Part shown: positions 3,590 through 44,242 of the stretch, one piece after another
How positions within the stretch are numbered: position 1 is the first letter of the stretch
Layout: the number at the start of each line of letters is the position of its first letter
NCBI GenBank assembly: GCA_964609455.1
Contig: CAZSRD010000002.1
Location: 13,402 to 72,777, forward strand
DNA length: 59,376 nucleotides
From: an uncultured Methanosarcinales archaeon
GTDB lineage: Archaea > Nanobdellota > Nanobdellia > Woesearchaeales > JACPBV01
Direction: 5' to 3'
Notes under the pieces: generated by a model
Database searches by the model: none
The model's input: only the letters and a program-made list of their open reading frames with translations
What the model was told of the DNA's origin: nothing
Position numbers and translations under genes: made by a program

Positions 3590-3683
3590 TAAGCTTTAAG
3601 ATTAACAAAAAGATTTATATACTACTTCTCTTTATAATAGTTATAAGATATACTTACAGTTCAAATAAAAAGAGGTGGAAAAA

Positions 3684-3872
3684 ATGGTTTTAGGCGTTCA
3701 AGAAGTTACATTGGCAATAATTGTTGGTACATTAGCAGCTATTGTATACTCACTGAGGATTCTTGTTTTAATGGAAAGAAGGATTGCAAGAATAGAGATG
3801 CATATCGAAAATGTTGTTGCAAAAGTAATGAGAGAAGAACTAAAGATTGAAAAGAAACTCAAGAAAAAATAA
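3684..3872 (+). CDS. Small single-pass membrane protein, hypothetical
   Basis: MVLGVQEVTLAIIVGTLAAIVYSL (TM) followed by a charged helix. GAGGTGG SD lies 6 nt before the ATG at 3684. The stop abuts the hjc stop. Confidence 0.5.
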   Translation: MVLGVQEVTLAIIVGTLAAIVYSLRILVLMERRIARIEMHIENVVAKVMREELKIEKKLKKK

Positions 3873-4259
3873 TCAAGCAATCAGCTCTTCAAATAATACT
3901 CCTTTTCTTTCTGCTTTTTCTACATTTATCATAAAGTTCTTGGCAGTTTCCTCTAAGTCATCCAAAGTTAAAAATAACCATTCTTTTTTATTAAATCTAA
4001 CTGCCAAATAAGGCTCAGCATTAAACATCTCTGCAAAAGTCCTTAATTGTTCAACATCCTCTTTCTCAATATACTTCCAGGGGTCTTTGGCAGTTTTACA
4101 CTCTATAGCCAATCTTCTCAGCTTATTAGTCGCCAAAATATCAGCAGAAGGATACCTCATAGAGCCAGAACCAGCTACTCTAAGGCTTGCCCATCCGCTG
4201 CCCCAGAACTTGTGTATCAAATCACGTTCAGCATTTATTCCTTTACTTTTTCGGCTCAT
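3873..4259 (-). CDS. hjc: Holliday junction resolvase Hjc
   Basis: KGINAERDLIHKFWGSGWASLRVAGSG ... DILATNKLRRLAIECKT (archaeal Hjc PD-(D/E)xK pattern), 128 aa. Confidence 0.85.
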   Translation of the reverse strand: MSRKSKGINAERDLIHKFWGSGWASLRVAGSGSMRYPSADILATNKLRRLAIECKTAKDPWKYIEKEDVEQLRTFAEMFNAEPYLAVRFNKKEWLFLTLDDLEETAKNFMINVEKAERKGVLFEELIA

Positions 4260-4302
4260 CTTAAACCTCGTTTAAGATACAGAAAATCCCTTAGGATTTT
4301 AT

Positions 4303-5193
4303 TTATAATTTAAACACCATAAAATCTTTAGCAGCTATCGAATTGTTAAATACATCCTTTGCGTCTTCTTCAACTTCTTCTGTAGTTTTATACCTGGCAG
4401 AAAAATGTGTTAATACTAATTTTTTAGCATTAGCCTGATTAGCGATCAAACCAGCCTGTTTACCAGTCATATGGCCATACTCTTCACCCTTTTCTTCTAA
4501 CTTAGAGCTATAAGTAGCTTCACAAATCAGCAAATCAGCATCTTCCGCCAATTTTACAGCATTTTTGCAAGGTACAGTATCTGCTATTACTGCAATTTTT
4601 TTACCATTTTCAACATAAGTTAAATCACTGGCATTTATTTTCTTGCCTTCAAAGCTAATTGATTCATTGTTTTGCAATTTTCCCAACAAAGGCCCATTAG
4701 GAATGCCAATCTTTTTTACCTTTTTAATATCAACATGTCTAATATCATTTTCAACAAAACTATAGCCTAAAGTTACAATTCCATGCTCTAAGGTTATTGC
4801 TTCCAAATAAAAATCTTTATTCTCAAAAAACTTGCCAGTGCTTATTTCTTTAACCTCAAATTTTACCTTCCTATCAAAAATAAAAGCCTTAAACATGCTC
4901 TCAATATGGTTCTTTGTCCCTTTTGGCCCATATATCTCCAAGGTCTTGCTATACTCCTGTGAACCCAATGTAGACATCACCCCAGGCAAGCCAAAAACAT
5001 GGTCTCCATGCCAATGAGTGATCAATATTTTAGTAATCTTTGTCAAAGGGATGCCTTTCTGCTTAAACTGCCTTTGGGTGCCTTCCCCGCAGTCTACTAA
5101 AATACCTTCATTCTTATATTTAATAAAAAGTGCTGACTGGTTTCTTTCTTTTGTCGGCACCATAGAAGAAGTGCCCAAAAATGTTATTTCCAT
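4303..5193 (-). CDS. rnz: Ribonuclease Z (tRNA 3' endonuclease)
   Basis: MEITFLGTSSMVPTKERNQSALFIKY...VDCGEGTQRQ...ITHWHGDHVFGLPG (metallo-beta-lactamase HxHxDH), 296 aa. Confidence 0.9.
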   Translation of the reverse strand: MEITFLGTSSMVPTKERNQSALFIKYKNEGILVDCGEGTQRQFKQKGIPLTKITKILITHWHGDHVFGLPGVMSTLGSQEYSKTLEIYGPKGTKNHIESMFKAFIFDRKVKFEVKEISTGKFFENKDFYLEAITLEHGIVTLGYSFVENDIRHVDIKKVKKIGIPNGPLLGKLQNNESISFEGKKINASDLTYVENGKKIAVIADTVPCKNAVKLAEDADLLICEATYSSKLEEKGEEYGHMTGKQAGLIANQANAKKLVLTHFSARYKTTEEVEEDAKDVFNNSIAAKDFMVFKL

Positions 5194-19668: not shown

Positions 19669-20526
19669 ATGATATCTGTAACAACTCTATGTTCATATAT
19701 GTACTGCCCAAGGAAGCTATTTCTTCAATACGTTCTTAAACTAACAGAGCCACCAAAGGAAGCGCTGATTAAAGGATCAATAAGGCATAAAGTATACGAA
19801 AACATAAATTTAGTAGAACAGGAGATTGTAAAAAGCATAAAAGAATTGCATACTTTGGAAGATCTGAAAGGTAAATATCACCAAAGATATAGAGAAATCC
19901 TATTAGATGTCATAAAACAGAAAAAAGAAGATCTAAAACAATTCAATATTCAGCCTCAAGACCTCTTCAAGCAAACTTGGCCTTTAATACTTGCAGAATC
20001 AGAAACAAGAGCCTCACTAATCCACAATTTTATTCTTAAAAATAATATTTTTGGAGAAGAGCTTTGGGAAAAGCTAACCCCTAAGATAGAATCAGAACTA
20101 AGGATAGAATCTAAAAATCTAGGCCTAAGAGGAATCATTGACCAAATTGAAGTATACCAAGTAGGATTTGTGCCAATCGAGCTTAAAACAGGTAAAACCC
20201 CAAAAGAAGGCGTTTGGCCCGGCCATAAAATCCAGCTAATAGCATATGCCTTATTATTAGAGGAAAAGTTCAAAACAGAGGTAAAGGAAGGTTTTGTACA
20301 CTATCTAGACTCTAAACAAAAGAGGCATATTCCCCTAAACCCATTTATGCGTCTTGAAGTCAAAGAATTAATCAAAAAAGTAAATTTCCTTCTAAACTCA
20401 GACAAAATACCAAATTTCGAAAAAAACCAGAATAAATGCATTAATTGTGGCTTAAAAGATGATTGTTATGACGAAAAAAAGCTAAAGACACTACTACAAA
20501 ATAAAAAACAAAAAGTTTATATATAA
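19669..20526 (+). CDS. Cas4-family PD-(D/E)xK exonuclease with 4-Cys cluster (stand-alone)
   Basis: N-terminal YCPRKLF Cys; IIDQIE...PIELKTGK (D..ExK); QLIAYALLLEE (QxxxY); C-terminal CINCGLKDDC (Cx2Cx5C). Confidence 0.75.
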   Translation: MISVTTLCSYMYCPRKLFLQYVLKLTEPPKEALIKGSIRHKVYENINLVEQEIVKSIKELHTLEDLKGKYHQRYREILLDVIKQKKEDLKQFNIQPQDLFKQTWPLILAESETRASLIHNFILKNNIFGEELWEKLTPKIESELRIESKNLGLRGIIDQIEVYQVGFVPIELKTGKTPKEGVWPGHKIQLIAYALLLEEKFKTEVKEGFVHYLDSKQKRHIPLNPFMRLEVKELIKKVNFLLNSDKIPNFEKNQNKCINCGLKDDCYDEKKLKTLLQNKKQKVYI

Positions 20527-32779: not shown

Positions 32780-33583
32780 ATGATTGTGAAAGAGGAGTTT
32801 TTAAGCAAACTAAGAAGATATTTCTCGTTAAACCTCTATGAGGTTAAAATTTGGACTGCATTGCTGAGCAGAGGAGTTTCTACAGCAGGGGAATTAAGTG
32901 ATATTGCAGACGTTCCAAGAAGCAGAAGTTATGATGTTCTAGAAAGCCTTGAGAAAAAAGGATTTGTGATTATGAAGCTAGGTAAGCCAATAAAATATCT
33001 TGCCGTTCCGCCGCAGGAAGTTTTGGAAAGGGTAAAAAAGAACGTTAAAGAAGATGCAAAAGATCAAATCACAAGATTAGAAGAACTAAAAGGAACAGAA
33101 GTTATTAACGAATTAAACGCTTTGCATACTCAAGGTGTAGAGCTAGTAGAGCCAGCTGATTTATCAGGTTCTTTAAGAGGGAGGCACAACCTATACAACC
33201 ATCTAGAATTGACTATTAGAAACGCAGAAAACAACGTTACCATGATGACAACAACCCAAGGGTTCATAAGAAAAGTTGAAGGTTTAAAGCCCACATTTGA
33301 GAAGATAAAGAAACGCGGTGTTAAAATCAGAATTGCAGCGCCAATAACAAAAGAAGCAATGTCATCAGTTAAAGACCTAAAAGGTTTAGCAGAAGTTAGG
33401 CACACAGATAGCAAAGCAAGGTTCTGTATTGTTGATGGCAAAGAGCTTATTTTCATGGTATTGGACGATGCAGAAGTGCACCCAACCTACGATGTAGGCG
33501 TATGGGTAAACACACCATTCTTTGCAAAAGCATTAGACACCCTATTTGATTCAGCTTGGAAAGGCATGAAGCCAATTAAATAA
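32780..33583 (+). CDS. TrmB-family transcriptional regulator (paralog 2)
   Basis: YEVKIWTALLSRGVSTAGELSDIADVPRSRSYDVLESLEKKGF. Colinear with 2810-3589 through the C-terminal domain. GGGGGTGA SD. Confidence 0.85.
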   Translation: MIVKEEFLSKLRRYFSLNLYEVKIWTALLSRGVSTAGELSDIADVPRSRSYDVLESLEKKGFVIMKLGKPIKYLAVPPQEVLERVKKNVKEDAKDQITRLEELKGTEVINELNALHTQGVELVEPADLSGSLRGRHNLYNHLELTIRNAENNVTMMTTTQGFIRKVEGLKPTFEKIKKRGVKIRIAAPITKEAMSSVKDLKGLAEVRHTDSKARFCIVDGKELIFMVLDDAEVHPTYDVGVWVNTPFFAKALDTLFDSAWKGMKPIK

Positions 33584-33603
33584 TTTTTTTTCTTATTTTT
33601 AGA

Positions 33604-33618
33604 CGAAAAGTTTATAAA
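33604..33618 (+). promoter_or_regulatory. BRE/TATA promoter element
   Basis: cgaaaag + tttataaa. The TATA centre is about 30 nt upstream of the ATG at 33645. Confidence 0.55.
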
Positions 33619-33644
33619 CAGGGGGTCATTAATACCTATCTAAG

Positions 33645-33725
33645 ATGGCTATGGCTGGGAAGATAAATTCAATATTGAATGAGTTCTTTCTAGGTCAAAA
33701 TTTCTTTTATTTTTATTTTTGGTAG
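33645..33725 (+). promoter_or_regulatory. Candidate aromatic-rich leader peptide ORF (26 codons) upstream of the aro-tyrA-pheA-pheST operon
   Basis: ATG GCT ATG GCT GGG AAG ATA AAT TCA ATA TTG AAT GAG TTC TTT CTA GGT CAA AAT TTC TTT TAT TTT TAT TTT TGG TAG = MAMAGKINSILNEFFLGQNFFYFYFW. Nine of the last 13 residues are F/Y/W. Confidence 0.4.
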
Positions 33726-33818
33726 GGCCTCTAGGTTAATTTTAATGCCTGGGACCCTCATTGTTTAAAACTGGTAAACAGACTTACACAAAAATAAAAA
33801 ACACAAAAGGTGAAACAA

Positions 33819-34607
33819 ATGGTTGGAAAACAAATAAGGATGCAAAGAATAATGAACAGAAATACAGGTAAAACTGTCGTCATCCCAATGGATCATGGGG
33901 TAACAGTTGGGCCAATAAAAGGCCTAGAGAACCTGAGGGATACAATTAATAAGGTAGCAGAAGGCGGGGCAAACGCAATAGTATTGCATAAAGGAATTGT
34001 TGCTGCAGGACTCCGTTCTGGAGGAAGAGATGTTGGGTTAATAATACACCTCTCAGCATCTACCAGCTTAGGGCCAGACCCCAACCATAAGGTGCAATGC
34101 TGTACTGTTAAGGAAGCAGTAAGATTGGGTGCAGACGCAGTCTCGATACATGTAAATATAGGTGCAGAAGATGAAGCAGAAATGCTGAAAGACATGGGAG
34201 AGGTATCAAGAGAATGTTATAAATGGGGAATGCCTTTGTTGGCTATGATGTATCCTCGTGGAAAGAAGATAAAAGACGAAAAAGATGTTGAAGCAGTTAA
34301 GCTGGCAGCGCGAGTAGGTGCAGAGCTAGGTGCAGACATTGTAAAAACAGTATACACGGGAAGTGTAGAATCTTTCAAACAGGTTATTGAAGGGTGCCCT
34401 GTGCCTGTTATTATAGCAGGAGGTTCAAAAGGAAACGAAGAAGCATGTTTGAAAATGATAGAGGATGCCATGAAAGCAGGAGCTGCAGGAGTGGCAATGG
34501 GAAGGAACTCTTTCCAGTATAAGGATCCTGCAAAATTCGTTAAAGCAGTATGCGAGGTAGTTCACCACAAAAAAAGCGCAAAACAAGCATGTAGTGTATT
34601 AAGGTGA
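33819..34607 (+). CDS. aroA': 2-amino-3,7-dideoxy-D-threo-hept-6-ulosonate (ADH) synthase, archaeal shikimate entry enzyme (class I aldolase family)
   Basis: [37 protein letters not shown]...AIVLHKG...KTVYTG...IAGG. MJ0400-like. AAGGTGA SD lies before the ATG at 33819. Confidence 0.8.
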
Positions 34608-34626
34608 AAAATGAAAAGGTGAAAAA

Positions 34627-35619
34627 ATGAAGATGTTTTGGGTTAATGCACTTAAATGGAATAAAAAAATAATCACAACAGCATTAGAGAGCAATGCAGA
34701 CGCAGTCTTAGTTCCAAAAGGTTTTTCAAAAAAAGTTAAAGAACTTGGCCTGATTAAGACAATAAGCCAGGATGGAGACCTTAAGCTTGGAAAAGATGTT
34801 GTTATAGTGACAATCAACAATAAAGATGATGAAAAAAAGGCATTGAAAGAATCAAAATCAAAATTAGTGATAGTAAAAACAACAGACTGGACAGTCATTC
34901 CTTTAGAAAACCTTATTTCACAGGCCCGTGGCCTTATAGCAGAAGTTAAAAACTCAACAGAAGCAAAGACAGCATTAGAAACCCTGGAAAAAGGCGTAGA
35001 TGGGGTTTTATTGACGACAAACAACCTAAACGAAATCAAAAAAACAGCATCACTTATTAAATCATCTTCAGAAAAAATACCTCTTGTAAAAGCAAAGATA
35101 ATGGGTGTAAAAGCAGTAGGGATGGGAGACCGAGTTTGTATAGACACATGCACAAATATGAAAATAGGCCAGGGCATGCTTGTAGGTGATTCAAGCTCTG
35201 GAATGTTTTTAGTGCATTCAGAATCAATTGAAAACCCATACGTTGCCCAAAGGCCGTTTAGGGTTAACGCTTCAGCAGTTCACGCTTACATAAAAGTTCC
35301 TGGAGGAAAAACAAAATATTTATCAGAGCTGAAGACAGGAACAGAAGCACTGGTTGTAGATGCAAAAGGCAGCACAGAGATAGCAATAATCGGAAGGGCC
35401 AAAGTGGAAAAACGCCCTTTGATGTTGGTTGAAGCAAAGGCAGGTAACAAAAACATATCTTTGATATTGCAGAACGCAGAAACAATAAGGTTGGTTAAGC
35501 CAAACGGAAAACCAGTTTCAATTGTTAAGCTTAAAAAAGGAGATGAAGTGTTAGTTTTTGTAGAGGAAGCAGGAAGGCATTTTGGAGTTAAGGTAGAGGA
35601 AACAATTGTAGAAAAATGA
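34627..35619 (+). CDS. aroB': 3-dehydroquinate synthase type II (archaeal)
   Basis: MKMFWVNALKWNKKIITTALESNADAVLVP ... GDRVCIDTCTNM..GQGMLVGDSSSGMFLVHSE. MJ1249-like, 330 aa. Confidence 0.8.
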   Translation: MKMFWVNALKWNKKIITTALESNADAVLVPKGFSKKVKELGLIKTISQDGDLKLGKDVVIVTINNKDDEKKALKESKSKLVIVKTTDWTVIPLENLISQARGLIAEVKNSTEAKTALETLEKGVDGVLLTTNNLNEIKKTASLIKSSSEKIPLVKAKIMGVKAVGMGDRVCIDTCTNMKIGQGMLVGDSSSGMFLVHSESIENPYVAQRPFRVNASAVHAYIKVPGGKTKYLSELKTGTEALVVDAKGSTEIAIIGRAKVEKRPLMLVEAKAGNKNISLILQNAETIRLVKPNGKPVSIVKLKKGDEVLVFVEEAGRHFGVKVEETIVEK

Positions 35620-37001
35620 TTGCAATACCAATAGTAGCCTCAACAGTAAAAGAGGCTTTGAAAGACATCAGAAAATCAAATGCAGATTTAGTAGAGCTAA
35701 GGCTGGACTTTATAAAAGATATAAACACAAGCAGACTGGAAAAATTACTGAGAACCAACAGGAAGGCTATAGTTACAGACAGAAAAAAACGCCATGAGCT
35801 TATAAAGAAAGCAATAGAGCTGAAAGCAGGCTTTATAGACCTGGACATATCATTAGGAGAAAAATCGATTAAGAATATTATAAAAGAAAAACAAAATACA
35901 AGAATAATCGTTTCTTTCCACAATTTCAAAAAGACAGATAGAAAAGAGATCAATGCAAGATATTCTCAAATTAAAAAGTTAAATCCTGACATAATAAAGA
36001 TAGTTACATATGCAAATTCTATAGAAGATAACCTTATAATATTAGGCCTTATCAAAAAAGCAAAAAAGCAAAAAATAAAAATTATAGCCCTATGCATGGG
36101 GGAAAAAGGGCAAATCTCCAGGATTTTAAGTGTTCCATTTGGGGCATTCCTGACATTTGGCAGCCTAGAAAAAGGAAAAGAATCAGCACCCGGTCAAATA
36201 CAGGCAAAAGCGTTAAAGGAAATATACCATGTAAATGAATTAAAAAACCCAAAAATATTTGGTCTGTTAGGAAACCCAGTATCTCATAGTAAAGGGTACA
36301 TATTTCATAATAGGAAATTTAAGAAATCAGAAAAGATATATGTGAATTTCCTGGTTAATGATATAAGCTCATTTATAAGAAAATTCAAGCCAATAATATC
36401 TGGGCTAAGCATTACAATCCCTTTTAAAAGAAAAGTTATCAGATTGTTAGATAAAGTAGGCCCATTAGCCAAAAAAATCGGGGCAGTAAACACAGTTATA
36501 AAGAAAAAAAACAAGCTAATTGGATACAACACAGACATTACAGGAGCGATTAAGGCAATAAGCTCAAAGACAAGAATCAAAGGAAAAAATGTGCTGTTAT
36601 TGGGTGCAGGGGGAGTTGCAAGGGCAATCGCTTATGGCATAGTTAATGAAGGAGGCAACCTTATAATAATTAACAGGACAGAAAAAAAAGCAAAAAATCT
36701 TAGCAAAGAACTTAACTGTAGTTCAGCAGCCTTAAAGGAATTGCCCAAGCTAAGCTACATCGATATAATCATAAACGCAACATCAATCGGCATGGAACCC
36801 AATATAGAAAATACGCCAATTAAAAAGAAAATATTGAGGAAAATATCTAAAAAAAATGCATTGGTTTTTGACTCAGTATACACACCAAAAACAACAAAAC
36901 TTTTAAAACAAGCAGAAAAACTTGGTTTTATCACAGTATCCGGATACGATATGTTCATAAATCAGGCTGAGGAACAAGCCAGATTATTTTTGGAGGTTTA
37001 A
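35616..37001 (+). CDS. aroDE: Fused type I 3-dehydroquinate dehydratase / shikimate dehydrogenase
   Basis: N-terminal half: IAIPIVAST..ADLVELRLDF, SFHNF, IIKIV (AroD type I). C-terminal half: FGLLGNPVSHSKG, NTD, LLGAGGVARAIAYG (AroE). One 461-aa ORF. Confidence 0.85.
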   Translation: MIAIPIVASTVKEALKDIRKSNADLVELRLDFIKDINTSRLEKLLRTNRKAIVTDRKKRHELIKKAIELKAGFIDLDISLGEKSIKNIIKEKQNTRIIVSFHNFKKTDRKEINARYSQIKKLNPDIIKIVTYANSIEDNLIILGLIKKAKKQKIKIIALCMGEKGQISRILSVPFGAFLTFGSLEKGKESAPGQIQAKALKEIYHVNELKNPKIFGLLGNPVSHSKGYIFHNRKFKKSEKIYVNFLVNDISSFIRKFKPIISGLSITIPFKRKVIRLLDKVGPLAKKIGAVNTVIKKKNKLIGYNTDITGAIKAISSKTRIKGKNVLLLGAGGVARAIAYGIVNEGGNLIIINRTEKKAKNLSKELNCSSAALKELPKLSYIDIIINATSIGMEPNIENTPIKKKILRKISKKNALVFDSVYTPKTTKLLKQAEKLGFITVSGYDMFINQAEEQARLFLEV

Positions 37002-37002
37002 T

Positions 37003-38283
37003 ATGAAACTTGTAGTAGAAAAAACAGAAAAACTTGAAGGGGAAATTACAATCCCGGGCTCTAAATCACATACAATTAGGGCTGTTATAATAGCATCCTT
37101 AGCAGAGGGCACATCGAAAATTCTAAATCCACTAAAATCAGAAGACACAATAGCAGCTATAAATGCTTGCAAAGCTTTAGGAGCAAATATCAACACAGAT
37201 AATGAAAAAGAATGGATTGTTAATGGATTTAACCATCAACCCAATGCCCCTGCAGAAATACTAAATCTAGCCAACTCCGGAACCTCTTTACGCTTAATAT
37301 CAGGGATAATAGCAGCTTTATGTGATTCTGAAGTAGAATTGGATGGAGACGAATCCTTGAGAACAAGGCCAATTCAACCACTTTTAAAGTCATTCAACGA
37401 ATTAGGTGCAGAAGCTTTGTCTGTCAAAAATAATGGGTATTGTCCAATAAAGATTAAGGGTAAAATGTCAGGCGGCTCTACAGAGATTGTTGGGTTGACC
37501 TCTCAATATGTATCCAGCTTATTGCTTGCTTGCCCCTTGCTAGAGCAAGATTCAAAAATTACAGTTATAAAACCTAATGAAGTGCCATATATTGAAATGA
37601 CATTGAAATGGCTCGATGAACAAGGAATCAAGTATGAATCTTCAAAGGATTTTACACAATTCAAGGTATTCGGCAATCAGCGCTATAAGGCATTTGAAAA
37701 GACAATTCCAGCAGATTGGAGCTCAGCAGCATTCCCCCTCGTAGCTTCTGCTATCTTGCCATCAAACGTTTTAATTAAGGGATTGGATCCAAATGATGTT
37801 CAAGGTGATAAAGCAATTATCGATTATATGAAAAAAATGGGTGCAGACATTTCAATAGAAAATAACGGAATAAGGATCAAAGGAAAAGAACTGCAAGGCT
37901 GTGAACTAGATATAAACAGCACACCAGACGCATTGCCTTCATTAGCAGTTCTGGGATGTTTTGCAAATGGCACAACTACCTTAGTTAATGTTGCTCAAGC
38001 AAGAGTAAAAGAAACAGATAGGATAAAAGTAATGACAGAAGAGCTTAGTAGAATGAACGCAGACATCAAAGAAAGGGAAGAGGGGCTGATAATCCACAAA
38101 AGCCATCTTAAGGGAACTAAGGTAAGAGGCCATGCAGACCACAGAATTGTCATGGCTCTAAGCCTGGCAGGCATGATTGCAGAAGGAAAGACCGAGATTA
38201 CAACAGCAGAATCAATAAATGTTACTTACCCAACTTATGTTGGGTCAATGAAAACTCTTGGAGCAAAAATGGAGGTAGTTTAA
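37003..38283 (+). CDS. aroA: 3-phosphoshikimate 1-carboxyvinyltransferase (EPSP synthase)
   Basis: IPGSKSHTIRAVIIASLAEG, LANSGTSLRL, LDGDESLRTRP, DALPSLAVLG, RVKETDRI, DHRIVMA. Confidence 0.92.
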   Translation: MKLVVEKTEKLEGEITIPGSKSHTIRAVIIASLAEGTSKILNPLKSEDTIAAINACKALGANINTDNEKEWIVNGFNHQPNAPAEILNLANSGTSLRLISGIIAALCDSEVELDGDESLRTRPIQPLLKSFNELGAEALSVKNNGYCPIKIKGKMSGGSTEIVGLTSQYVSSLLLACPLLEQDSKITVIKPNEVPYIEMTLKWLDEQGIKYESSKDFTQFKVFGNQRYKAFEKTIPADWSSAAFPLVASAILPSNVLIKGLDPNDVQGDKAIIDYMKKMGADISIENNGIRIKGKELQGCELDINSTPDALPSLAVLGCFANGTTTLVNVAQARVKETDRIKVMTEELSRMNADIKEREEGLIIHKSHLKGTKVRGHADHRIVMALSLAGMIAEGKTEITTAESINVTYPTYVGSMKTLGAKMEVV

Positions 38284-38284
38284 A

Positions 38285-39439
38285 ATGATGGGAAACACTT
38301 TCGGAAGAATTTTTAGAATTACAACAGCAGGAGAATCATATGGAAAAGGAAAAGGTTCTGCTCTAGCAGTAATAGTAGACGGAGTCCCACCTGGCTTAAA
38401 AATTACAAAAGAGGTTATTCAAAAAGAATTAGATGCAAGAAAACCAGGTGTTGGAAAATTAAATTCACCAAGAAAAGAAACAGACCAATGTGAGATATTT
38501 GCCGGAATAGGCCAAGATGGAGTAACAACAGGAGCCCCGTTAGGAATCATCATATACAATGTTGACACCCAAAAAGTCCATATAGAACAGTATAGGCAAT
38601 ATAAAGACACTTTCAGGCCAGGGCATGCAGCTTACCCATTCTACATGAAATATGGGGATGCGCAAGATTGGTGTGGCGCTGGTAGAGCCTCAGGAAGAGA
38701 AACAGTAGGTAGGGTAGCAGGAGGAGCAGTTGCAAAATTCATCTTAGCCAGAGAAGGAATAGAAATAGTCTCATACACAAAAGAATGCATGGGTATTAAG
38801 GCAAAAGAAATGTCTTTTGATGAAATCAAAAAGAACAGAAGGAAAAGTGAAATCAACTGCCCTGACTTAGAAGCAGCAAAGAAAATGGAAAAGAAAGTTT
38901 TGGAGATAAAAGACGAAGGAGATACAGCAGGAGGAATAATTGAGATAATAGCTAGGGGCGTCCCTCCTGGGCTTGGAGAACCAGTCTTTGACAAATTAAG
39001 CGCAACAATAGCTCATGCCTTAGCTTCAATAGGAGCAGTTAAAGGAGTAGAATTCGGAGCAGGATTTGAAGTTGCAAATATGAAAGGCTCTAAAAATAAT
39101 GACCAGCCTTATCTGACAAAAGATGGTAAAGTTAGTTTCAAAACCAACAATGCAGGAGGATTTTTAGGCGGGTTCTCAAACGGAGAAGATATTGTAGCTA
39201 GAATAGCCGTAAAACCAACACCTACAATATCAGTAAAACAAACATCCATAAATATGAAAACAATGAAAGAAGAGCCGCTTTCACCTATAACTAGAAGAGA
39301 CCCAACTTTAGTTGGAAGATTATGGGCTGTAGCAGAAGCAATGATGGCAGTTGCAATATTAGACTCGTTATACATGGCCAAAGCGTATGACGGAATGGCA
39401 AGACTCGATGAAAAATGGATGAAACTAAAGGAAAAATAA
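38285..39439 (+). CDS. aroC: Chorismate synthase
   Basis: FRITTAGESYGKG, RKPG, RPGHAAY, GRASGRETVGRVAGGAVA, GGFLGGFSNGEDI, KPTPTI, RRDPTLVGR. Confidence 0.92.
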   Translation: MMGNTFGRIFRITTAGESYGKGKGSALAVIVDGVPPGLKITKEVIQKELDARKPGVGKLNSPRKETDQCEIFAGIGQDGVTTGAPLGIIIYNVDTQKVHIEQYRQYKDTFRPGHAAYPFYMKYGDAQDWCGAGRASGRETVGRVAGGAVAKFILAREGIEIVSYTKECMGIKAKEMSFDEIKKNRRKSEINCPDLEAAKKMEKKVLEIKDEGDTAGGIIEIIARGVPPGLGEPVFDKLSATIAHALASIGAVKGVEFGAGFEVANMKGSKNNDQPYLTKDGKVSFKTNNAGGFLGGFSNGEDIVARIAVKPTPTISVKQTSINMKTMKEEPLSPITRRDPTLVGRLWAVAEAMMAVAILDSLYMAKAYDGMARLDEKWMKLKEK

Positions 39440-40272
39440 CAATTGGAATAATCGGCGGAACAGGCCGAATGGGTCAATGGTTTAAGAGGTTTTTTGAGAA
39501 AAACCACTACCCTGTTATTATATCTAGTAGAAAAACAAAAATTAAACCGAAAGAATGTGCATCTAAATGCGACGTTGTTGTAATAACCGTTCCTATAGGC
39601 TCCACCATAAGGGTGATCAAGGAAGTAGCTCCTTTTGTTAGAGAAGATGCTTTGCTTATGGACTTAACATCTTTGAAAAAAGATCAAGTAGAAGCTATGT
39701 TAAAATACAGCAAAGCAGCAGTTATAGGCGCACACCCTGTTTTTGGTCCTTCTGTTGGCAAAATAAAAAACCAAACAGTTGTTCTATGCCCCTCAAGGCC
39801 AAGAAATTGGCTGAGCTGGCTTCGTAATTTATTTGAAAAGAATGGTGCTTTAGTAAGGATAACAACTCCGGAAAAACATGACAAGATGATGTCTATCATA
39901 CAAGGATTAACCCACTTTTCAACAATATGCGTAGCCCACACTTTAAAAAAATTAGGAATAGATGTTGAAGAGAGTTTGCATTATACTTCTCCAATCTACA
40001 AACTTAGGATGGATATGGTTGGAAGATTGCTTAATCAAGACCCGGGATTATATGCAGATATCGAGATGCTTAATCCCGACAATAAAAAAGCAATGGAAGA
40101 GTACATCCGTTCAACTCGTGAACTAATAGGGATAATAAAAAGAAAAGACAGGGAAGAATTTATTCAATTCTTCAAAGAAGGTTCTGATTTCCTAGGTGAC
40201 TTCAAAAAAGAGGCAACAGAATATTCAGATTATATAATAGAGCAATTAGTGAAAAAAGGAAGATTAAGATGA
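39415..40272 (+). CDS. tyrA: Prephenate dehydrogenase
   Basis: IGIIGGTGRMGQWF Rossmann, DLTSLK, GAHPVFGP, HDKMMSIIQGLTHF. No chorismate mutase domain. Confidence 0.85.
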   Translation: MDETKGKITIGIIGGTGRMGQWFKRFFEKNHYPVIISSRKTKIKPKECASKCDVVVITVPIGSTIRVIKEVAPFVREDALLMDLTSLKKDQVEAMLKYSKAAVIGAHPVFGPSVGKIKNQTVVLCPSRPRNWLSWLRNLFEKNGALVRITTPEKHDKMMSIIQGLTHFSTICVAHTLKKLGIDVEESLHYTSPIYKLRMDMVGRLLNQDPGLYADIEMLNPDNKKAMEEYIRSTRELIGIIKRKDREEFIQFFKEGSDFLGDFKKEATEYSDYIIEQLVKKGRLR

Positions 40273-41075
40273 TAGCAACACTTGGCCCAAAAGGCACTTT
40301 TAGCCATGAAGCAGTTTTGAAGAGAGATAAGAATGCCGAACTTCTTTTCAAAAATACTGTTTGGGATGTTTTCGAAGCAGTGGCTGCAAACGAAGTTGAT
40401 GAAGGCGTTGTACCTATTGAAAACTCAGTTTCAGGTACAATAGGTTTGACCTTGGATGCATTAATGGAGTTTGATTTGAATATTATTGCAGAAATAATAT
40501 TGCCAATAAAGCATAATCTTGTGGGTTATGATGGTGTTAAAGAGATTAAAACATTATATGTCCATCCTTCTACTTATGAGCAATGTGAAAAATTCATCAG
40601 AAAAACCATACCAGAAGCTAAAATAATACAGACAAGCTCGAACGCAGCATCAGCTGAGATTATTGCTGAGAAAAAAGACCAGACAAAAGCCGCAATAGTT
40701 CCTTTGGAAGCTGTTGAGATATATAAACTAAAGGTAATAAAGAAAAATGTACAAGACAATAAATTCAATATTACAAAATTCATTGTTATAAGCAAAAAGG
40801 AACCCCAAAAAACATCCTCTGAAAGGACATCCATAGCAATATACCCTCAAGCGGATAAGCCGGGTTTGCTTTATTCCTTATTGGGAGAATTTGCAAAGAG
40901 AGACATCAATCTAACCAAAATAGAATCAAGGCCATCTAAAGGAAAGTTAGGAGATTATATTTTTTTCATAGACTTACAGGGAAACAAGGAAGATGCCAAA
41001 ATAAAAGAAGCATTTGCTAAAATAGAAGAGGATTTTTTCCTTAAGGTTTTAGGCTCATACCATAGGGAATATTAA
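40269..41075 (+). CDS. pheA: Prephenate dehydratase with ACT domain
   Basis: IATLGPKGTFSHEA, VPIENSVSGTI, NITKF, TKIESRPSKG (TRF/ESRP motifs), ACT-like C-terminus. No chorismate mutase domain. Confidence 0.88.
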   Translation: MIATLGPKGTFSHEAVLKRDKNAELLFKNTVWDVFEAVAANEVDEGVVPIENSVSGTIGLTLDALMEFDLNIIAEIILPIKHNLVGYDGVKEIKTLYVHPSTYEQCEKFIRKTIPEAKIIQTSSNAASAEIIAEKKDQTKAAIVPLEAVEIYKLKVIKKNVQDNKFNITKFIVISKKEPQKTSSERTSIAIYPQADKPGLLYSLLGEFAKRDINLTKIESRPSKGKLGDYIFFIDLQGNKEDAKIKEAFAKIEEDFFLKVLGSYHREY

Positions 41076-41076
41076 A

Positions 41077-42591
41077 ATGGATAAACTAATCCAGACATTG
41101 CACATTTATGAAAGAAAAGTGCTTAATGTATTGGATAAGGCAAATGATCTTTCTTCTATAGCAAAAGAATCTGGATTGCAGGAAATAGAGGCAATGCGTG
41201 GCTTGCAATGGTTAGAAAATAAAGGTATTGTTAAGATTTCTTCTGAATTAAAGGAAATTGTAGTTTTAGATGATAATGGAAGAAAATACCTTGAAAAAGG
41301 CCTGCCAGAAAGGAGATTCCTGCAGCATTTAAAGAAAGACACCCCAATTTCTGAAATTGTTAAGAATGCAGGTTTAGAAAAAGAAGAAGTCAATATCTGT
41401 TTGGGGGTTTTAAAAGGGAAAGCAGCAATATCGATTAAGAAAGATAAGGAAATGATAATCTCTCCCTTACCTCAAGCTTCTAAATTATTGGAAAAAGAGT
41501 CATTAGAAGAGCAGTTTCTCAAGAAAAGTTTCCCACTAGGCTTATCATCTTTAAGAGATGAAGAGAAGTTTGCTCTGGAAAATTTAAAGAGGAGAAAAAA
41601 CATTATCAAAGTTGAAACTAAGAAACTTAAAAACGCAGTTTTAACAGATCTAGGAAAAAAATTACTCGCTAAAGGAATATCCCTGGAAGAATCCTATGAC
41701 AGGCTAACTCCAAAAATGCTCAAAGATGGTTCTTGGCAAAAGAAAAAATTTAGAAGATATGATGTTAGGATTAATGTTCCATCAATATTTGGGGGAAAAA
41801 AACAGCATTACATGAGGTTTTTAGATGAAGTTAGGCAAAAATTCATGGCTTTAGGATTTAAGGAAATGTTTGGCCCTATAGTCGAAACAGAGTTTTGGGA
41901 TATGGATGCTTTATTCATGCCCCAATTTCATTCCGCCAGGGATATACATGGGGCTTATTATGTTAAAGAGCCAAAATACGGAAAAGTAGAGAAAGATATA
42001 CTAGAAAATGTTAAGTTAAGTCACGAAATTGGTAAGGGAACAATTAGCAAAGGGTGGAGATATAAATTTGATATTGACAAAACAAAACAACTTATTTTAA
42101 GGACCCAGGGAACAGCATTATCTGCTAGGACTTTAGCTTCTAAAGATTTACAAATACCTGGGAAGTATTTTGCAATAGCAAGATGCTTCAGGCCAGATGT
42201 TGTTGACGCAACCCACTCAGCAGACTTTAACCAGGTTGAAGGTATAATAATAGAAGAAAATCTTAATTTCAAGCACCTTAAGGGATTATTAAAAATGTTT
42301 GCAGAAGAATTTGCTCAAACAGACCAAATAAAGATTACGCCAGCTTACTTTCCGTTCACAGAACCATCTGCAGAATTACATGCAAAACATCCAGAACTAG
42401 GATGGATTGAACTAGGTGGTTCAGGTATTTTTAGGCCAGAATTAGTAAAACCTCTAGTTGGAAAAGAAATACCAGTTTTAGCATGGGGTTTGGGTATAGA
42501 CAGATTAGCAATGTTCAAATTGGGGATAAATGACATCAGGGAGTTATTCTCACACAAATTAGAATTTTTGAAGAGTAGTAAGGTAATCTAA
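41077..42591 (+). CDS. pheS: Phenylalanyl-tRNA synthetase alpha subunit
   Basis: N-terminal wH repeats. Class II core: FWDMDALFMPQFHSARD, LRTQGTA, RCFRPD, FNQVEG, PFTEPSAE, GSGIFRPE, AWGLGIDRLAM. Confidence 0.92.
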   Translation: MDKLIQTLHIYERKVLNVLDKANDLSSIAKESGLQEIEAMRGLQWLENKGIVKISSELKEIVVLDDNGRKYLEKGLPERRFLQHLKKDTPISEIVKNAGLEKEEVNICLGVLKGKAAISIKKDKEMIISPLPQASKLLEKESLEEQFLKKSFPLGLSSLRDEEKFALENLKRRKNIIKVETKKLKNAVLTDLGKKLLAKGISLEESYDRLTPKMLKDGSWQKKKFRRYDVRINVPSIFGGKKQHYMRFLDEVRQKFMALGFKEMFGPIVETEFWDMDALFMPQFHSARDIHGAYYVKEPKYGKVEKDILENVKLSHEIGKGTISKGWRYKFDIDKTKQLILRTQGTALSARTLASKDLQIPGKYFAIARCFRPDVVDATHSADFNQVEGIIIEENLNFKHLKGLLKMFAEEFAQTDQIKITPAYFPFTEPSAELHAKHPELGWIELGGSGIFRPELVKPLVGKEIPVLAWGLGIDRLAMFKLGINDIRELFSHKLEFLKSSKVI

Positions 42592-42592
42592 A

Positions 42593-44242
42593 ATGCCAAC
42601 AATAAATTTTTCACTAACAGACTTGCAGAATTTAGTAGGCAAAAAACTTTCAATAGAAGAAGTCTCTAAACTAGCTGAATATGGAAAAGGCTCTTTTGAA
42701 GCTTATAATAAGGGAGAGGACGAAGTTTCAATCGAATTTGGTGATACCAATCTTCCATATTTATGGTCAGTGGAAGGATTTGCTCGCTTAATCAAAGGTG
42801 TTTTAGGTTTACAAAAAGGAATCCCTAAATTAGAGATAAAAAAAGCAGATTATAGTATTATCGTAGACAAATCTGTATCCCTTATCAGGCCATATATTGC
42901 CGCATTTGTGGCAAAAGGCCATAAAGTAGATGATTACTTAATTAAACAGATGGTCCAATTGCAGGAAAAATTATGTGAAAGTTTTGGTAGAAGAAGGTTA
43001 AAGGTGGCAATAGGAGTTTACAGCTATGACAAAATTAAATTCCCAGTGCATTATAAAGCAACAGAACCAGAGTCAGTAAAGTTTACACCATTAGAATTCA
43101 AAAAAGAAATGACTCAGCAGGAAATTCTGGAAGAGCACCCAAAAGGAAAAGAATATGCATGGACACTAGAAGGTTGTAAGAAATATCCAATATTAGTAGA
43201 TGATGCTAATGAAGTCTTGAGTTTCCCGCCCATAATTAACTCTAATTTTACAGGTAAGGTTGCTGAAGGAGATGAACACCTTTTTATCGAAGCTACAGGA
43301 ACAGACCTCGAATCAAATCTTTTAGCCATTAATATAATGGCTCAAGCTTTTTATGAAAGGGGCTTTGAGATTTACTGCGTAGACATAAAATACCAAGGAA
43401 AAAAAATAACAACGCCTTTTATCTTTAAAGACAAAATAAAAATAACTAATCAACAAATAAAATCCCTGCTCGGATTAGATCTTAAAACTTCTCAAATTAA
43501 AGAATTACTGGAAAAAGCGCAATATAATTACTCGACTGTTGTGCAAATACCACCCTATAGAAAAGATATATTGCACCCAAACGATGTCATAGAAGACATC
43601 GGGATAATATATGGGTATGATAATATAAAAGAAGAGCCATTAACTTCCTACACAATTGGGGAAACATCTAATTTAGTAAAATTCAAAGACAAAATAAGAG
43701 AACTGATTGTTGGCTTAGGTTATCAGGAAGCAGCCTCCCCAATGTTAACAAATAAGACTATTTTATATGAAAAAATGAACACCAAAGACTTGGGCACAAT
43801 AGAGTTAACCAATTTCATGTCAGAGACCTACTCTTGTGTAAGGTCCTGGTTATTGCCTATTTTGATGGACTTTCTATCTAAAAACAAACATGTAGAATAC
43901 CCTCAAAAAGTATTTGAACAAGGTTTAGTTACAGTAAAAGAAGGTGATGATGTAATAGATTACGAGCGCATAGCAATAGTCTCAGCAAACGAAAAAGCAG
44001 ACTACACAGAAATAAGGCAGGTTCTTGATTATATGGCCAGGATGTTAGGAATTGAATATTCAATAGAGGAAACAGACCATGATTCATTCATACCCGGAAG
44101 AGTGGGGAGAGTAATCGTAAACAATAAAAAAGTAGCTTATATTGGAGAAATCTCGCCAATAGTCTTGGGAAATCACAGTTTAGAAATTCCGGTTGTAGGA
44201 TTAGAGCTCAATATATCTGATCTATTCCAATCTATGGTCTAA
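42593..44242 (+). CDS. pheT: Phenylalanyl-tRNA synthetase beta subunit
   Basis: MPTINFSLTDLQNLVGK, B3/4 and B5 regions (IPPYRKDILHPNDVIEDIGIIYGYDNI), archaeal size of 549 aa. Confidence 0.9.
   Translation: MPTINFSLTDLQNLVGKKLSIEEVSKLAEYGKGSFEAYNKGEDEVSIEFGDTNLPYLWSVEGFARLIKGVLGLQKGIPKLEIKKADYSIIVDKSVSLIRPYIAAFVAKGHKVDDYLIKQMVQLQEKLCESFGRRRLKVAIGVYSYDKIKFPVHYKATEPESVKFTPLEFKKEMTQQEILEEHPKGKEYAWTLEGCKKYPILVDDANEVLSFPPIINSNFTGKVAEGDEHLFIEATGTDLESNLLAINIMAQAFYERGFEIYCVDIKYQGKKITTPFIFKDKIKITNQQIKSLLGLDLKTSQIKELLEKAQYNYSTVVQIPPYRKDILHPNDVIEDIGIIYGYDNIKEEPLTSYTIGETSNLVKFKDKIRELIVGLGYQEAASPMLTNKTILYEKMNTKDLGTIELTNFMSETYSCVRSWLLPILMDFLSKNKHVEYPQKVFEQGLVTVKEGDDVIDYERIAIVSANEKADYTEIRQVLDYMARMLGIEYSIEETDHDSFIPGRVGRVIVNNKKVAYIGEISPIVLGNHSLEIPVVGLELNISDLFQSMV

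Follow-up and report, generated by a model that had tools for sequence, protein, structure and literature searches.

The question raised by this locus is whether a short ORF with an aromatic tail, located upstream of an operon for aromatic amino acid biosynthesis in a 59,376-nt stretch of DNA (the window) from a Woesearchaeota-like (DPANN) archaeon, could control that operon in the way that leader peptides do in bacteria. Leader-peptide attenuation is a textbook form of transcription-translation coupling which is seen as a bacterial invention. To our knowledge there is no archaeal case, and our literature search found no published archaeal leader-peptide attenuation, in agreement with what was stated when this DNA was first interpreted without database searches (the sequence-only reading). 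Based on comparative sequence analysis, we give a probability of roughly 60% to the reading that the ORF is a translated, cis-acting uORF through which the downstream aromatic/PheRS operon senses how much charged Phe-, Tyr- and often Trp-tRNA is available. The comparisons below show that its frame, its aromatic codons, both of the hairpins that it is associated with and its linkage to aromatic pathway genes are under selection, and make it the strongest candidate known to us for bacterial-style leader-peptide sensing in archaea.

The leader ORF (33645..33725, plus strand) consists of 26 codons followed by TAG and translates as MAMAGKINSILNEFFLGQNFFYFYFW; the last seven residues are all Phe, Tyr or Trp, and nine of the final 13 positions hold an aromatic residue. 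Codons 20-26 (33702..33722, plus strand, TTC TTT TAT TTT TAT TTT TGG, encoding FFYFYFW) form the aromatic run. The stop codon is 93 nt away from the ATG of aroA' at 33819, a start position which was fixed by alignment to relatives beginning with M(I/V)GKQIR, and which is preceded at a distance of 5 nt by an SD-like GGTGA (33809..33813, plus strand). Pfam and NCBIfam matches identify the downstream genes as aroA'-aroB'-aroD-aroE fusion-aroA-aroC-tyrA-pheA-pheS-pheT (33819..44242, plus strand), with overlapping or tightly packed genes, aroA' encoding an ADH synthase and aroB' a DHQ synthase II; an exact-protein look-up gave no identical protein on record for AroA' of the window. As in attenuators, a short ORF rich in codons for the operon's own amino acids is placed upstream of that operon, and the translation, aromatic end and distance to aroA' given in the sequence-only reading, as well as its assignment of a Phe/Tyr and PheRS operon, all hold.

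The promoter proposed there was also confirmed. This BRE/TATA promoter, P1 (cgaaaag tttataaa, 33604..33618, plus strand), has its 3' end 26 nt before the leader ATG. A strict BRE/TATA pattern (RAA-N1-2-TTWAWAWA), with a background of one match per 5.3 kb overall, is located 23-26 nt upstream of the leader start codon in 8/12 closest relatives. The suggested likeness in spacing to first genes in the window was confirmed as well, since at 19669, 14467 and 44286 the TATA ends 21-24 nt 5' of the ATG. In two clades the leader start overlaps the upstream stop codon, as TAAAATG (L001, L037) or TAATG (L130).

Equivalent short ORFs were found in about 20 related genomes, with 16 distinct sequences representing three subfamilies and one singleton, and ORFs homologous to that of the window are present at L001, L002, L032, L037, L117, L119, L120, L121, L122, L124 and L126. 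With the exception of one TrmB locus, the fetched relatives with an aro gene at this position have a homologous or analogous ORF there, and the check proposed in the sequence-only reading thus gave a positive answer: aro loci keep an F/Y/W-rich ORF in place despite nucleotide divergence. The first genes behind the leader differ and are mutually unrelated, being tkt(N)-aroA', aroA', DAHP synthase I-alpha-pheST or DAHP synthase I-beta. At 79 TrmB loci the aro genes and leader were both present in 13, aro genes only in one, the leader only in one and neither in 64 (Fisher P = 7e-13, a statistic which ignores phylogeny, and the locus counts overstate the number of independent events because the loci are phylogenetically related). 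The leader also stays with the operon where the neighbourhood has changed, by an extra gene in L122 and an IS200 transposase in L130. The frequency of such ORFs near unrelated genes, another check that had been suggested, was assessed in 175 kb of non-ORF sequence, where 21/26 strict aromatic-tail matches are these leaders and five are unrelated; presence tracks the aro genes. The carriers are spread over DPANN lineages (Woesearchaeota/Nanoarchaeia and one MAG labelled Diapherotrites). When aroA' loci beyond DPANN (methanogens, ANME, Altiarchaeales and Bathyarchaeia; L003-L036) were scanned up to 3 kb upstream, no archaeal aromatic-tailed ORF was found, the sole match being the bacterial locus L010. 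A protein search with the 44-aa leader of L135 gave no candidates; such ORFs are too short for gene calling.

The linkage in cis has to be weighed against the promoters in the spacer. A well-formed second BRE/TATA, P2, is present in 9/12 closest relatives at a distance of 21-56 nt from the first gene, so that transcription of the operon may not depend on the leader there. The P1 transcript, with the ORF and the hairpin at its stop codon (HP1, see below), could end before the operon and constitute an independent small unit with a product acting in trans or otherwise, while the operon would be transcribed only from P2 or, in the window, from a weak TATA-like gtttaaaa (33762-33769). The latter is the alternative TATA named in the sequence-only reading; it does not match the strict pattern and lies inside a conserved box, CATTGTTTAA (33759..33779, plus strand), which overlaps a small hairpin (GUUUA..UAAAC) and is kept in the window, L121, L117, L119, L120, L126 and L032. 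We consider such a small unit unlikely, but it is the alternative that survives best: in the nine ADH-type loci the distance from P2 fits a leaderless mRNA or a short SD-containing 5' UTR, and HP1 with the T-rich sequence at some loci resembles the end of a small RNA. There is also a precedent for attenuator products acting in trans, as the attenuator-derived peptide and sRNA peTrpL and rnTrpL of Sinorhizobium reportedly do so (PMC7298713, PMC7968998), and aromatic amino acid sensing might persist in a similar manner. However, the leader-aroA' spacer of the window does not contain a strict BRE/TATA, and neither do the spacers between leader and first gene in L127 and L135, while the DAHP-synthase-type loci and L045 combine a strong SD with the absence of a well-placed promoter between leader and gene; a strong SD without a spacer promoter at all of these loci implies a long 5' UTR. 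Furthermore, a cis-element is predicted to remain strictly linked to the first aromatic gene, as the leader has done in spite of several rearrangements, and the peptide is free of constraint in its N-terminal half.

The latter point comes from the substitution pattern among homologues, which also speaks for translation of the ORF. In the aromatic tail of 12 homologues, pS is 0.72 (near saturation) with a pN of 0.053, all variation being T/C at third positions with positions 1 and 2 invariant, whereas the N-terminal half has a pS of 0.64 and a pN of 0.50. The leader stop codon is interchangeable (TAG, TAA or TGA), the leaders differ in length by whole codons, an ATG with an open frame is present in 16/16 distinct sequences, and the spacing from the FFL motif to the stop codon varies between leaders. 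The amino acid identity of the regulatory codons is thus kept while the rest of the leader peptide drifts, as is characteristic of attenuators. The exception is the middle of the ORF, where a low pS and an invariant CTAG indicate constraint at the nucleotide level.

Folding of all loci and covariation analysis place two hairpins on either side of the aromatic run. Stem A (33652..33697, plus strand) is located inside the ORF and is formed by codons 3-7 (33652-33663, UGGCUGGGAAGA) pairing with the E-F-F-L-G codons (33685-33697, UCUUUCUAGGUCA), with an inner hairpin AUUCA/UGAAU; this pairing accounts for the invariance of the CTA Leu codon and the CTAG. HP1 (33724..33758, plus strand; arms 33724-33736 and 33747-33758) starts within the stop codon, and in 18/18 loci a hairpin begins within 0-5 nt of the stop codon's first base. 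Based on a model-guided alignment, 87% of cells are paired in Stem A with compensatory changes at 4/9 pairs, and 94.7% are paired in HP1 with compensatory changes at 9/10 pairs; a MAFFT-only alignment of HP1 under-counted pairs. In the folds, the aromatic run is the single-stranded linker separating both hairpins.

This conserved structure allows for a reading in which Stem A, HP1 and the U-rich linker form a structured non-coding or protein-binding RNA and the reading frame is incidental, which would agree with the covariation in both hairpins, the constraint around the CTAG, and the recovery of the family by a sequence-plus-structure covariance model (R1) that also finds members left out of its building. 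We regard this as improbable, because the changes in the linker are codon-periodic, the start codon, frame, whole-codon indels and exchangeable stops described above are properties of a coding sequence, and the three subfamilies share their aromatic codons but hardly any primary sequence. Searches with Rfam families also gave no support for a known RNA: the whole window was without a match at the gathering score, and in the 33560-33860 region no leader family, including Phe_leader (RF01859), matched at E-values up to 10.

Less probable still is that the ORF is a by-product of T-rich DNA, and that the repeats CTAG...CTAG and GTCC...GGAC are operators bound by a TrmB-like or another regulator. 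At most loci a TrmB-family gene is indeed directly upstream, in the window a regulator-like gene of 267 aa (32780..33583, plus strand; Pfam TrmB and Regulator_TrmB, with TrmBL2 as top NCBIfam match under its cut-off), which carries its own SD and which we treat as context only. An oligo-T tract (T9, T5) directly follows its stop codon (33586..33600, plus strand) and is probably its terminator; T-rich tracts likewise follow the TrmB-like gene at loci where the aromatic leader ORF is missing. The TrmB-like gene is 65-91% identical across 80+ loci, usually with pheST or tkt next to it, and is equally conserved by pheST/tkt in the 64 loci without repeats or ORF, whereas L127, L130 and L135 have the leader but no TrmB gene next to it. 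In addition, the stems vary yet stay paired, including G-U pairs, while the helix-turn-helix of the TrmB-like protein is invariant, and CTAG inverted repeats are missing from 27 inspected leader-less TrmB intergenic regions. It is true that the control of the aromatic pathway known so far in archaea is by DNA-binding proteins: Tar (TK0271) of Thermococcus kodakarensis and TrpY of Methanothermobacter are DNA-binding activators or repressors which act at promoters without a leader ORF, with Tar homologues restricted to the Thermococcales (PMC6737238). These proteins have the same pathway as target, but Tar is MarR-like, is encoded within the aro operon and recognises TGGACA-N8-TGTCCA before the BRE/TATA, and the regulator in the window is TrmB-family rather than MarR-like. 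The GTCC..GGAC stem does not resemble a Tar site either, as the HP1 arms come after the promoter, have an everted order and covary.

When the 235-nt intergenic region holding the leader ORF was shuffled with its dinucleotide composition preserved, an ATG ORF of 15-45 codons in which seven or more of the last eight residues are aromatic arose in 1/20,000 cases (P ~5e-5), and the same 20,000 shuffles gave P 0.004 with the requirement relaxed to at least five of the last eight. Only two other aromatic-tailed small ORFs are present in the window, both antisense within real genes, and we found no convincing case of another amino acid-biased leader ORF across the window. That the F/Y run is a coincidence of reading T-rich spacer DNA from an AT-rich genome, the caveat attached to the sequence-only reading, is very improbable given this P-value and the conserved coding signature, even with the five unrelated matches in non-ORF sequence and with F/L-rich pseudo-ORFs arising from T-rich terminators behind the TrmB-like gene elsewhere, chance examples which have no ATG, Tyr codons or flanking hairpins.

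With regard to the output of the proposed uORF, several bacterial-type arrangements were considered. Comparison of the duplex energies 1:2, 3:4, 2:4, 1:3, 2:3 and 1:4 did not give a classical four-region attenuator, since no pairing other than the two local hairpins is general; the 2:4 alternative is strong in the window and L121 only, and no conserved antiterminator-like alternative pairing was found in the main family. For the leaders of the DAHP-synthase type, however, the predictions from three sequences include an alternative pairing, CCGGA:UCUGG, that is conserved, and a long-range one, UAAGUUCU:AGAACUUA. The window contains no bacterial-type terminator (GC-rich hairpin and U run) and no oligo-T tract of at least five after HP1; such tracts are inconsistent across loci, with about one half of them having one. 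Oligo-U tracts are present 15-60 nt past the leader stop in about half of the loci, with a T9 in L135. The sequence-only reading had also pointed at the oligo-T tract within the aromatic codons as a potential terminator. A T5 is present there in 15/17 loci, but as TTT codons make it unavoidable it is a by-product, and at one locus it is interrupted by synonymous TAC/TTC codons. Similarly, the 12-nt complementarity noted between tttttatttttg (33710-33721) and an A-rich segment upstream of the SD (caaaaataaaaa, 33789..33800, plus strand) is exact in the window and forms part of the minimum-energy fold, but is not conserved and no better than expected from composition. In the window this pairing is marginal at 0.04 versus shuffles, and only 5/17 loci (the window, L117 and three DAHP-synthase I-alpha loci) beat dinucleotide shuffles at about 0.03-0.06; the complement often falls on the purine-rich ribosome-binding region because of composition. 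No tRNA genes were found in the window.

The layout of the element suggests how it could work. From P1, an essentially leaderless ATG is followed by a free N-terminal half of which the RNA would form Stem A with the F-F-L codons, then a single-stranded run of ~27 nt with 5-7 aromatic codons, the stop codon with HP1, and an untranslated spacer of 80-220 nt up to the first biosynthetic gene. When aromatic aminoacyl-tRNAs are scarce, the ribosome would stall at the last codons and its footprint would hold the 5' arm of HP1 open, whereas with plentiful aminoacyl-tRNA the ribosome would terminate and leave, allowing HP1 to close and RNA polymerase to continue uncoupled on a naked spacer. As output we favour premature transcription termination in the spacer, possibly at oligo-U tracts, or else through FttA/aCPSF1, an archaeal factor, where the RNA is free of ribosomes; stalling of the ribosome would then relieve termination, and starvation would raise operon expression. 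We know of no established hairpin-dependent termination by archaeal RNA polymerase, and the main alternative output would be translation or RNA stability via refolding of the spacer. On balance, and somewhat less firmly than for the uORF itself, we favour the view that leader-peptide control mediated by the ribosome would here be seen for the first time in Archaea, in a form in which an aromatic aminoacyl-tRNA sensor is expressed from an archaeal promoter as a leaderless or stop/start-coupled uORF, the terminator/antiterminator pair is replaced by a bracket of two hairpins, and the effect is on termination (oligo-U and/or FttA) or mRNA refolding, with a spread across DPANN lineages and recruitment upstream of four or more different first genes.

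If true, the translating ribosome would serve as a metabolite sensor in archaea too, and would add an extra regulatory layer in DPANN archaea, which are usually called metabolically minimal. With a size of ~180 nt, the element would also be a compact natural test object for the influence of the ribosome on termination by archaeal RNA polymerase, and for the response of polarity, FttA action or oligo-U termination to this influence. Model R1 together with simple ORF criteria can be used for finding further leaders, and uORF-aware comparative scans can reveal cis-regulators of uncultivated archaea.

Of the known systems, the E. coli pheL and pheM leaders share a short ORF packed with Phe codons (in pheM also Tyr) near the stop, presumably with ribosome stalling at scarce charged tRNA as the signal, and they precede Phe/Tyr synthesis and PheRS genes, respectively, targets which are both contained in the operon of the window. 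In contrast, the archaeal element has a BRE/TATA and a leaderless start, is without a GC-hairpin-U-run terminator or a conserved terminator/antiterminator alternative, and has its regulatory codons between two hairpins rather than within region 1. The inferred geometry is also similar to E. coli tnaC, where a ribosome at the leader end shields RNA and blocks factor-dependent termination in a long spacer; Rho is absent from archaea, and FttA/aCPSF1 would be the analogue. However, tnaC uses its nascent peptide to sense free Trp and the operon that it induces is catabolic, whereas the archaeal leaders have an unconstrained N-terminal peptide, a variable FFL-stop spacing and a biosynthetic target. 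In the translational attenuation of ermC/cat a stalled leader ribosome likewise opens a hairpin adjoining the ORF, but that hairpin directly sequesters the SD of the next gene, while in the archaeal loci the SD of the next gene follows at a distance of 60-200 nt and the aromatic run has no conserved pairing with the SD region. The bacterial locus L010, from a Spirochaetota MAG, has a classical attenuator with a sigma-70-like promoter, an SD-led leader and a textbook pair of alternative hairpins that ends in GCAGGC..GCCTGC followed by T10, all of which are absent from the archaeal elements, yet it lies upstream of archaeal-type aroA'/aroB' genes for the same ADH synthase and DHQ synthase II, and its leader run FFFYFYFYFF resembles the FFYFYFW of the window.

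In the window, a BRE/TATA element (cgaaaag tttataaa, 33604-33618, forward strand; P1) ends 26 nt ahead of the ATG at 33645 of a short ORF on the same strand, read from the sequence as MAMAGKINSILNEFFLGQNFFYFYFW, and the TAG of this ORF ends at 33725, 93 nt from the aroA' ATG at 33819, exactly as described in the sequence-only reading. The upstream neighbour is a TrmB-family gene (32780-33583, forward strand) with its own SD and an oligo-T tract after it, for which the best NCBIfam match was TrmBL2, under the cut-off. Downstream, Pfam and NCBIfam identified nine closely packed operon genes: aroA' (ADH synthase), aroB' (DHQ synthase II), an aroD-aroE fusion, aroA, aroC, tyrA, pheA, pheS and an archaeal-type pheT. 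At three other first genes in the window the TATA box ends 21-24 nt from the ATG, so a leaderless start of the short ORF fits local practice. Of 20,000 shuffled versions of the intergenic region with dinucleotides preserved, one gave a comparably aromatic ORF tail, and only two aromatic-tailed small ORFs occur elsewhere in the window, both antisense within genes. In the window operon (37003-39439) neither a shikimate kinase nor a chorismate mutase domain was found, and these steps are thus encoded elsewhere or by unrecognised genes; among the loci fetched for comparison (L-numbers), L124 has a SKI-domain gene between aroA and aroC, and pheA of L127 and L135 includes a CM_2 domain.

Relatives of AroA' in the genome collection (81-84% identity) came from MAGs labelled Candidatus Woesearchaeota or Nanoarchaeia, with the gene order TrmB-like (83-91% identical), intergenic region, two transketolase-subunit genes and aroA'. 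The set was enlarged by a metagenome scan with the TrmB-like protein, giving 80 loci, and by exact-protein look-ups of AroA' and DAHP-synthase homologues. Conservation of the TrmB-like gene is unusually high (65-91% identity, L037-L116). Most Woesearchaeota-like loci have pheS-pheT, or tktN-tktC and then pheS, immediately after it; the aro genes seem to have been inserted into this older TrmB-[tkt]-pheST arrangement. Both the window (33584-33819) and L121 (4218-4500) are without the two transketolase-subunit genes preceding aroA' in other relatives, and because their spacers differ from each other, this suggests independent losses. Some operons contain both entries to the shikimate pathway (L122 4501-8415; L123; L001 4807-5820), with ADH synthase and DHQ synthase II of the archaeal route plus DAHP synthase I-beta, and in L122 and L123 also a classical DHQ synthase.

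Wherever a fetched relative carries an aromatic gene at the corresponding place, it also has such a short ORF. The main family, in ADH-synthase operons, includes L001 (MSLEKHSRKLNEFFLDLTFFYYFR), L002 (MNPIGKKQTSRFFLGSSYFYFR) and L032 (MNISEGIRVILNELFLDNSFLYFYFC), all given up to the stop codon and located between the TrmB-like and transketolase genes, as well as L117 (MNILERLNVILNEFFLDKRFFYFYFW), L119 (MNILERVNIVLNEFFLDRKFFYFYFW), L120 (MNILERLNIGLNEIFLDRQLFYFYFW), L126 (MNILERINGVLNEFFLDKSLFYFYFW), L124 (MAHEKALNKDFFLVPYFYF), L037 (MNLEKLSKNLKEFFLDKSFFYYFR), L121 (MNMPERINQRENEFFLGKNFYFYFW, with aroA' directly 3' as in the window) and L122 (MTALLARIKIWNNFFLARSFYFYF, with an extra 224-aa gene between the TrmB-like gene and the leader). 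A second subfamily precedes a bacterial-type DAHP synthase I-alpha followed by pheST (L091, MQKPNIFSIVDFVLDSFSFKFYYYFY; L130, MKQSSKINTDNFASYSFKFFYFYWR; L133, MINRTSKKNISNLASSSFKFYYYFYY), while a third precedes aroA' in GC-richer genomes with no TrmB neighbour (L127, MLPMALAIVPEKSFFESVLQAIAGFFGYWYFD; L135, MKFASAFFPSEKTLGKTGFAFAFKDSFSDKVLRAFSNWYFFYFE, an NCBI MAG labelled Diapherotrites). The leader of the singleton L045, ending in NWGSFLFFTNIFYFGFFK, lies ahead of a DAHP synthase I-beta with a ferredoxin-like regulatory domain. For the I-alpha enzymes of the second subfamily, five proteins reach 57-78% identity; the remaining closest relatives are at or below ~50% and, where the source is named, bacterial (Chloroflexi/Chloroflexota, Dehalococcoidia, Peregrinibacteria, Poriferisphaera), which suggests that this gene was horizontally acquired and placed behind a pre-existing leader.

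Linkage to aromatic genes was assessed in the 79 loci with a TrmB-like gene and sufficient downstream DNA. A strict leader and a downstream aro gene occur together in 13/79 and are both missing from 64/79, where pheST, or tkt with no aro genes, typically comes after the TrmB-like gene. The two exceptions are L045 (aro gene, no strict leader, with one Tyr only in the tail) and L037 (strict leader, no aro gene seen, as the contig ends in tktN). The association has a Fisher P of 7e-13, with independence overstated since the loci are related. Strict matches in the non-ORF sequence of 135 loci (175 kb) number 26, of which 21 are these leaders.

A hand-anchored codon alignment of 12 main-family ORFs showed an uneven distribution of substitutions. 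In the aromatic tail (codons 20-26; pS 0.72, pN 0.053) amino-acid identity is strongly constrained, with free exchange of TTT/TTC and TAT/TAC and no T/C change at codon positions 1 or 2, whereas the N-terminal half (codons 2-11; pS 0.64, pN 0.50) is essentially unconstrained. Codons 12-17 (N-E-F-F-L-D; pS 0.33, pN 0.15) are constrained at the nucleotide level, the Leu codon always being CTA and CTAG invariant. The stop codon varies between TAG, TAA and TGA, and indels comprise whole codons. Judging by these substitutions, the ORF behaves as a coding sequence in which the relevance of the peptide is limited to its aromatic part, as is typical for regulatory leader peptides; the pattern is at odds with a chance ORF, with a purely non-coding RNA and with a functional small protein. 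Conservation extends to the start of the ORF as a site of translation initiation. The strict BRE/TATA pattern, found overall once per 5.3 kb, ends 23-26 nt ahead of the leader ATG in 8/12 main-family loci, and looser TATA boxes lie 17-23 nt upstream of the start in L091, L133, L045, L127 and L135. In L001 and L037 the ATG directly follows the TrmB-like stop codon (TAAAATG), and the stop/start arrangement in these two and in L130 is as would be expected for termination-reinitiation coupling.

Two hairpins flank the aromatic codons. In Stem A (33652-33697 in the window) codons ~3-7 pair with the F-F-L codons, which explains the nucleotide constraint in codons 12-17; its arms are CUGGGAAGA / UCUUUCUAGG in the window, CUAGAAAGA / UCUUUCUAG in L119 and UCUAGAAAAA / UUUUUUCUAGA in L001. 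The second, HP1 (33724-33758), starts, in the folds of 18/18 loci, at a distance of 0-5 nt from the stop codon's first base, with wide sequence divergence between loci (window, GGGCCUCUAGG / CCUGGGACCC; L117, GUCUUUAAGC / GCUUAGAAGAC; L001, GUCCAUUAGU / ACUAGUGGAC; DAHP-synthase type, CCGG / CCGG). A covariance model built from seven sequences recovered L037, L001, L002 and L122 from outside the building set (E from 1e-7 to 1e-3), and gave marginal matches at the correct place and strand in the DAHP-synthase-type L130 and L133. In the model-guided alignment 91% of cells are paired vs 41-55% with partners slid, and compensatory changes occur at 9/10 pairs of HP1 and 4/9 of Stem A, figures which lean towards structure as the alignment was fitted to the model. 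The G-U pairs and the changing stems, set against an invariant TrmB-like helix-turn-helix, argue against DNA operators and for RNA structure. Between Stem A and HP1 the aromatic run forms a single-stranded linker of ~27 nt, about one ribosome footprint.

Among known systems, the element is closest in function to the pheL/pheA and pheM/pheST leaders of E. coli. It differs from a classical attenuator in terminator and, as far as the main family shows, in antiterminator: there is no bacterial-type intrinsic terminator in the window, and no alternative pairing general to the main family was found. It is also distinct from the Rfam Phe_leader, as no Rfam family matched even at E up to 10. For the DAHP-synthase-type leaders, with three sequences only, a long-range duplex between UAAGUUCU in the first aromatic codons and AGAACUUA, ~35 nt ahead of the gene, and an alternative partner UCUGGUUU for the HP1 3' arm are predicted. 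The sequence-only reading had noted that the aromatic codons (33710-33721) have a 12-nt complement upstream of the aroA' SD (33789-33800), and that ribosome position on the T runs of these codons could plausibly influence termination. The complement is real in the window but not conserved in relatives, and U-rich codons opposite A/G-rich ribosome-binding regions account for most of it; T runs of at least 5 within the aromatic codons are frequent (15/17 loci), yet inherent to TTT codons. These mechanistic details are unsupported. The core interpretation, leader-peptide control, has support within the reach of sequence comparison. Downstream of the stop codon, T runs of at least 5 occur in about half of the loci (T9 inside HP1 in L135, two T5 in L127, at least one T5-T6 each in L037, L119, L120, L032, L124 and L130), with none in the window. 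A bacterial counterpart is L010, a Spirochaetota MAG with the same archaeal-type aroA'/aroB' genes behind an FFFYFYFYFF leader and a textbook terminator (2320-2635; leader MNRYIDSSTVLWRFQSTANFFFYFYFYFFSKS, then alternative hairpins and GCAGGC..GCCTGC + T10), which by analogy shows both that leader logic would suit such an operon and what the archaeal version lacks.

The comparison shows selection on the reading frame and its aromatic codons, on the two hairpins, and on linkage with genes of the aromatic pathway. With archaeal transcription coupled to translation and a ribosome footprint reaching ~12-15 nt beyond the P site in the 3' direction, a ribosome stalling at the last of the aromatic codons would cover the HP1 5' arm, whereas one that terminates and leaves would allow HP1 to close, with RNA polymerase on 80-220 nt of untranslated RNA. 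Our favoured guess at the output is premature termination in the spacer via oligo-U and/or FttA, which the stalled ribosome would relieve; a second choice would be refolding with an effect on translation or stability.

In many genomes, transcription of the operon may also, or exclusively, start at a promoter of its own; the leader unit would then influence expression through read-through or have a role in trans. A strict spacer BRE/TATA (AAAAnTTTAAAAA; P2) lies 21-56 nt ahead of the first gene's ATG in 9/12 main-family loci (L002, L032, L117, L119, L120, L121, L122, L124, L126), a placement which would suit either a leaderless transcript or a short 5' UTR with an SD, and the rarity of the strict pattern suggests that P1 and P2 are tandem promoters. 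There is no strict BRE/TATA in the spacers of the window, the DAHP-synthase-type loci, L045, L127 and L135, and several loci without P2 have a strong SD, implying a long 5' UTR; the alternative TATA flagged earlier in the window (gtttaaaa, 33762-33769) is present but weak.

In archaea, the control of aromatic genes described so far works through DNA-binding proteins such as Tar, a MarR-like protein confined to Thermococcales (PMC6737238) and unrelated to the TrmB-like neighbour of the leader. Full-text literature searches returned no report of leader-peptide attenuation in archaea, and leader-peptide control of this operon would, if confirmed experimentally, be the first such case among the Archaea.

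Several loci show rearrangements around the leader. In L129-L132 (1778-2302) the stop codon of an IS200/IS605-type Y1 transposase gene, the upstream neighbour of the L130 leader, overlaps the leader ATG (TAATG), and the transposase gene thus replaces the leader's promoter; L129 has a DDE transposase gene (3594-4535) at the place of pheST in L130. An A-rich, purine-only spacer of 110-130 nt separates leader hairpin and aroA' in L127 (4520-4640) and L135 (2890-2990), ending in L135 with a tandem duplication of ttttGGAGGa. In L032 (1015-1177) a structured insertion of ~145 nt (1024-1168) between the leader hairpin and a P2-like TATA looks like a MITE, as it has terminal inverted repeats (ccccatagaaaccc...gggtttctatgagg) with a 9-nt direct repeat (caatagatg) on either side; tktN of this locus probably starts at 1217 rather than 1175.
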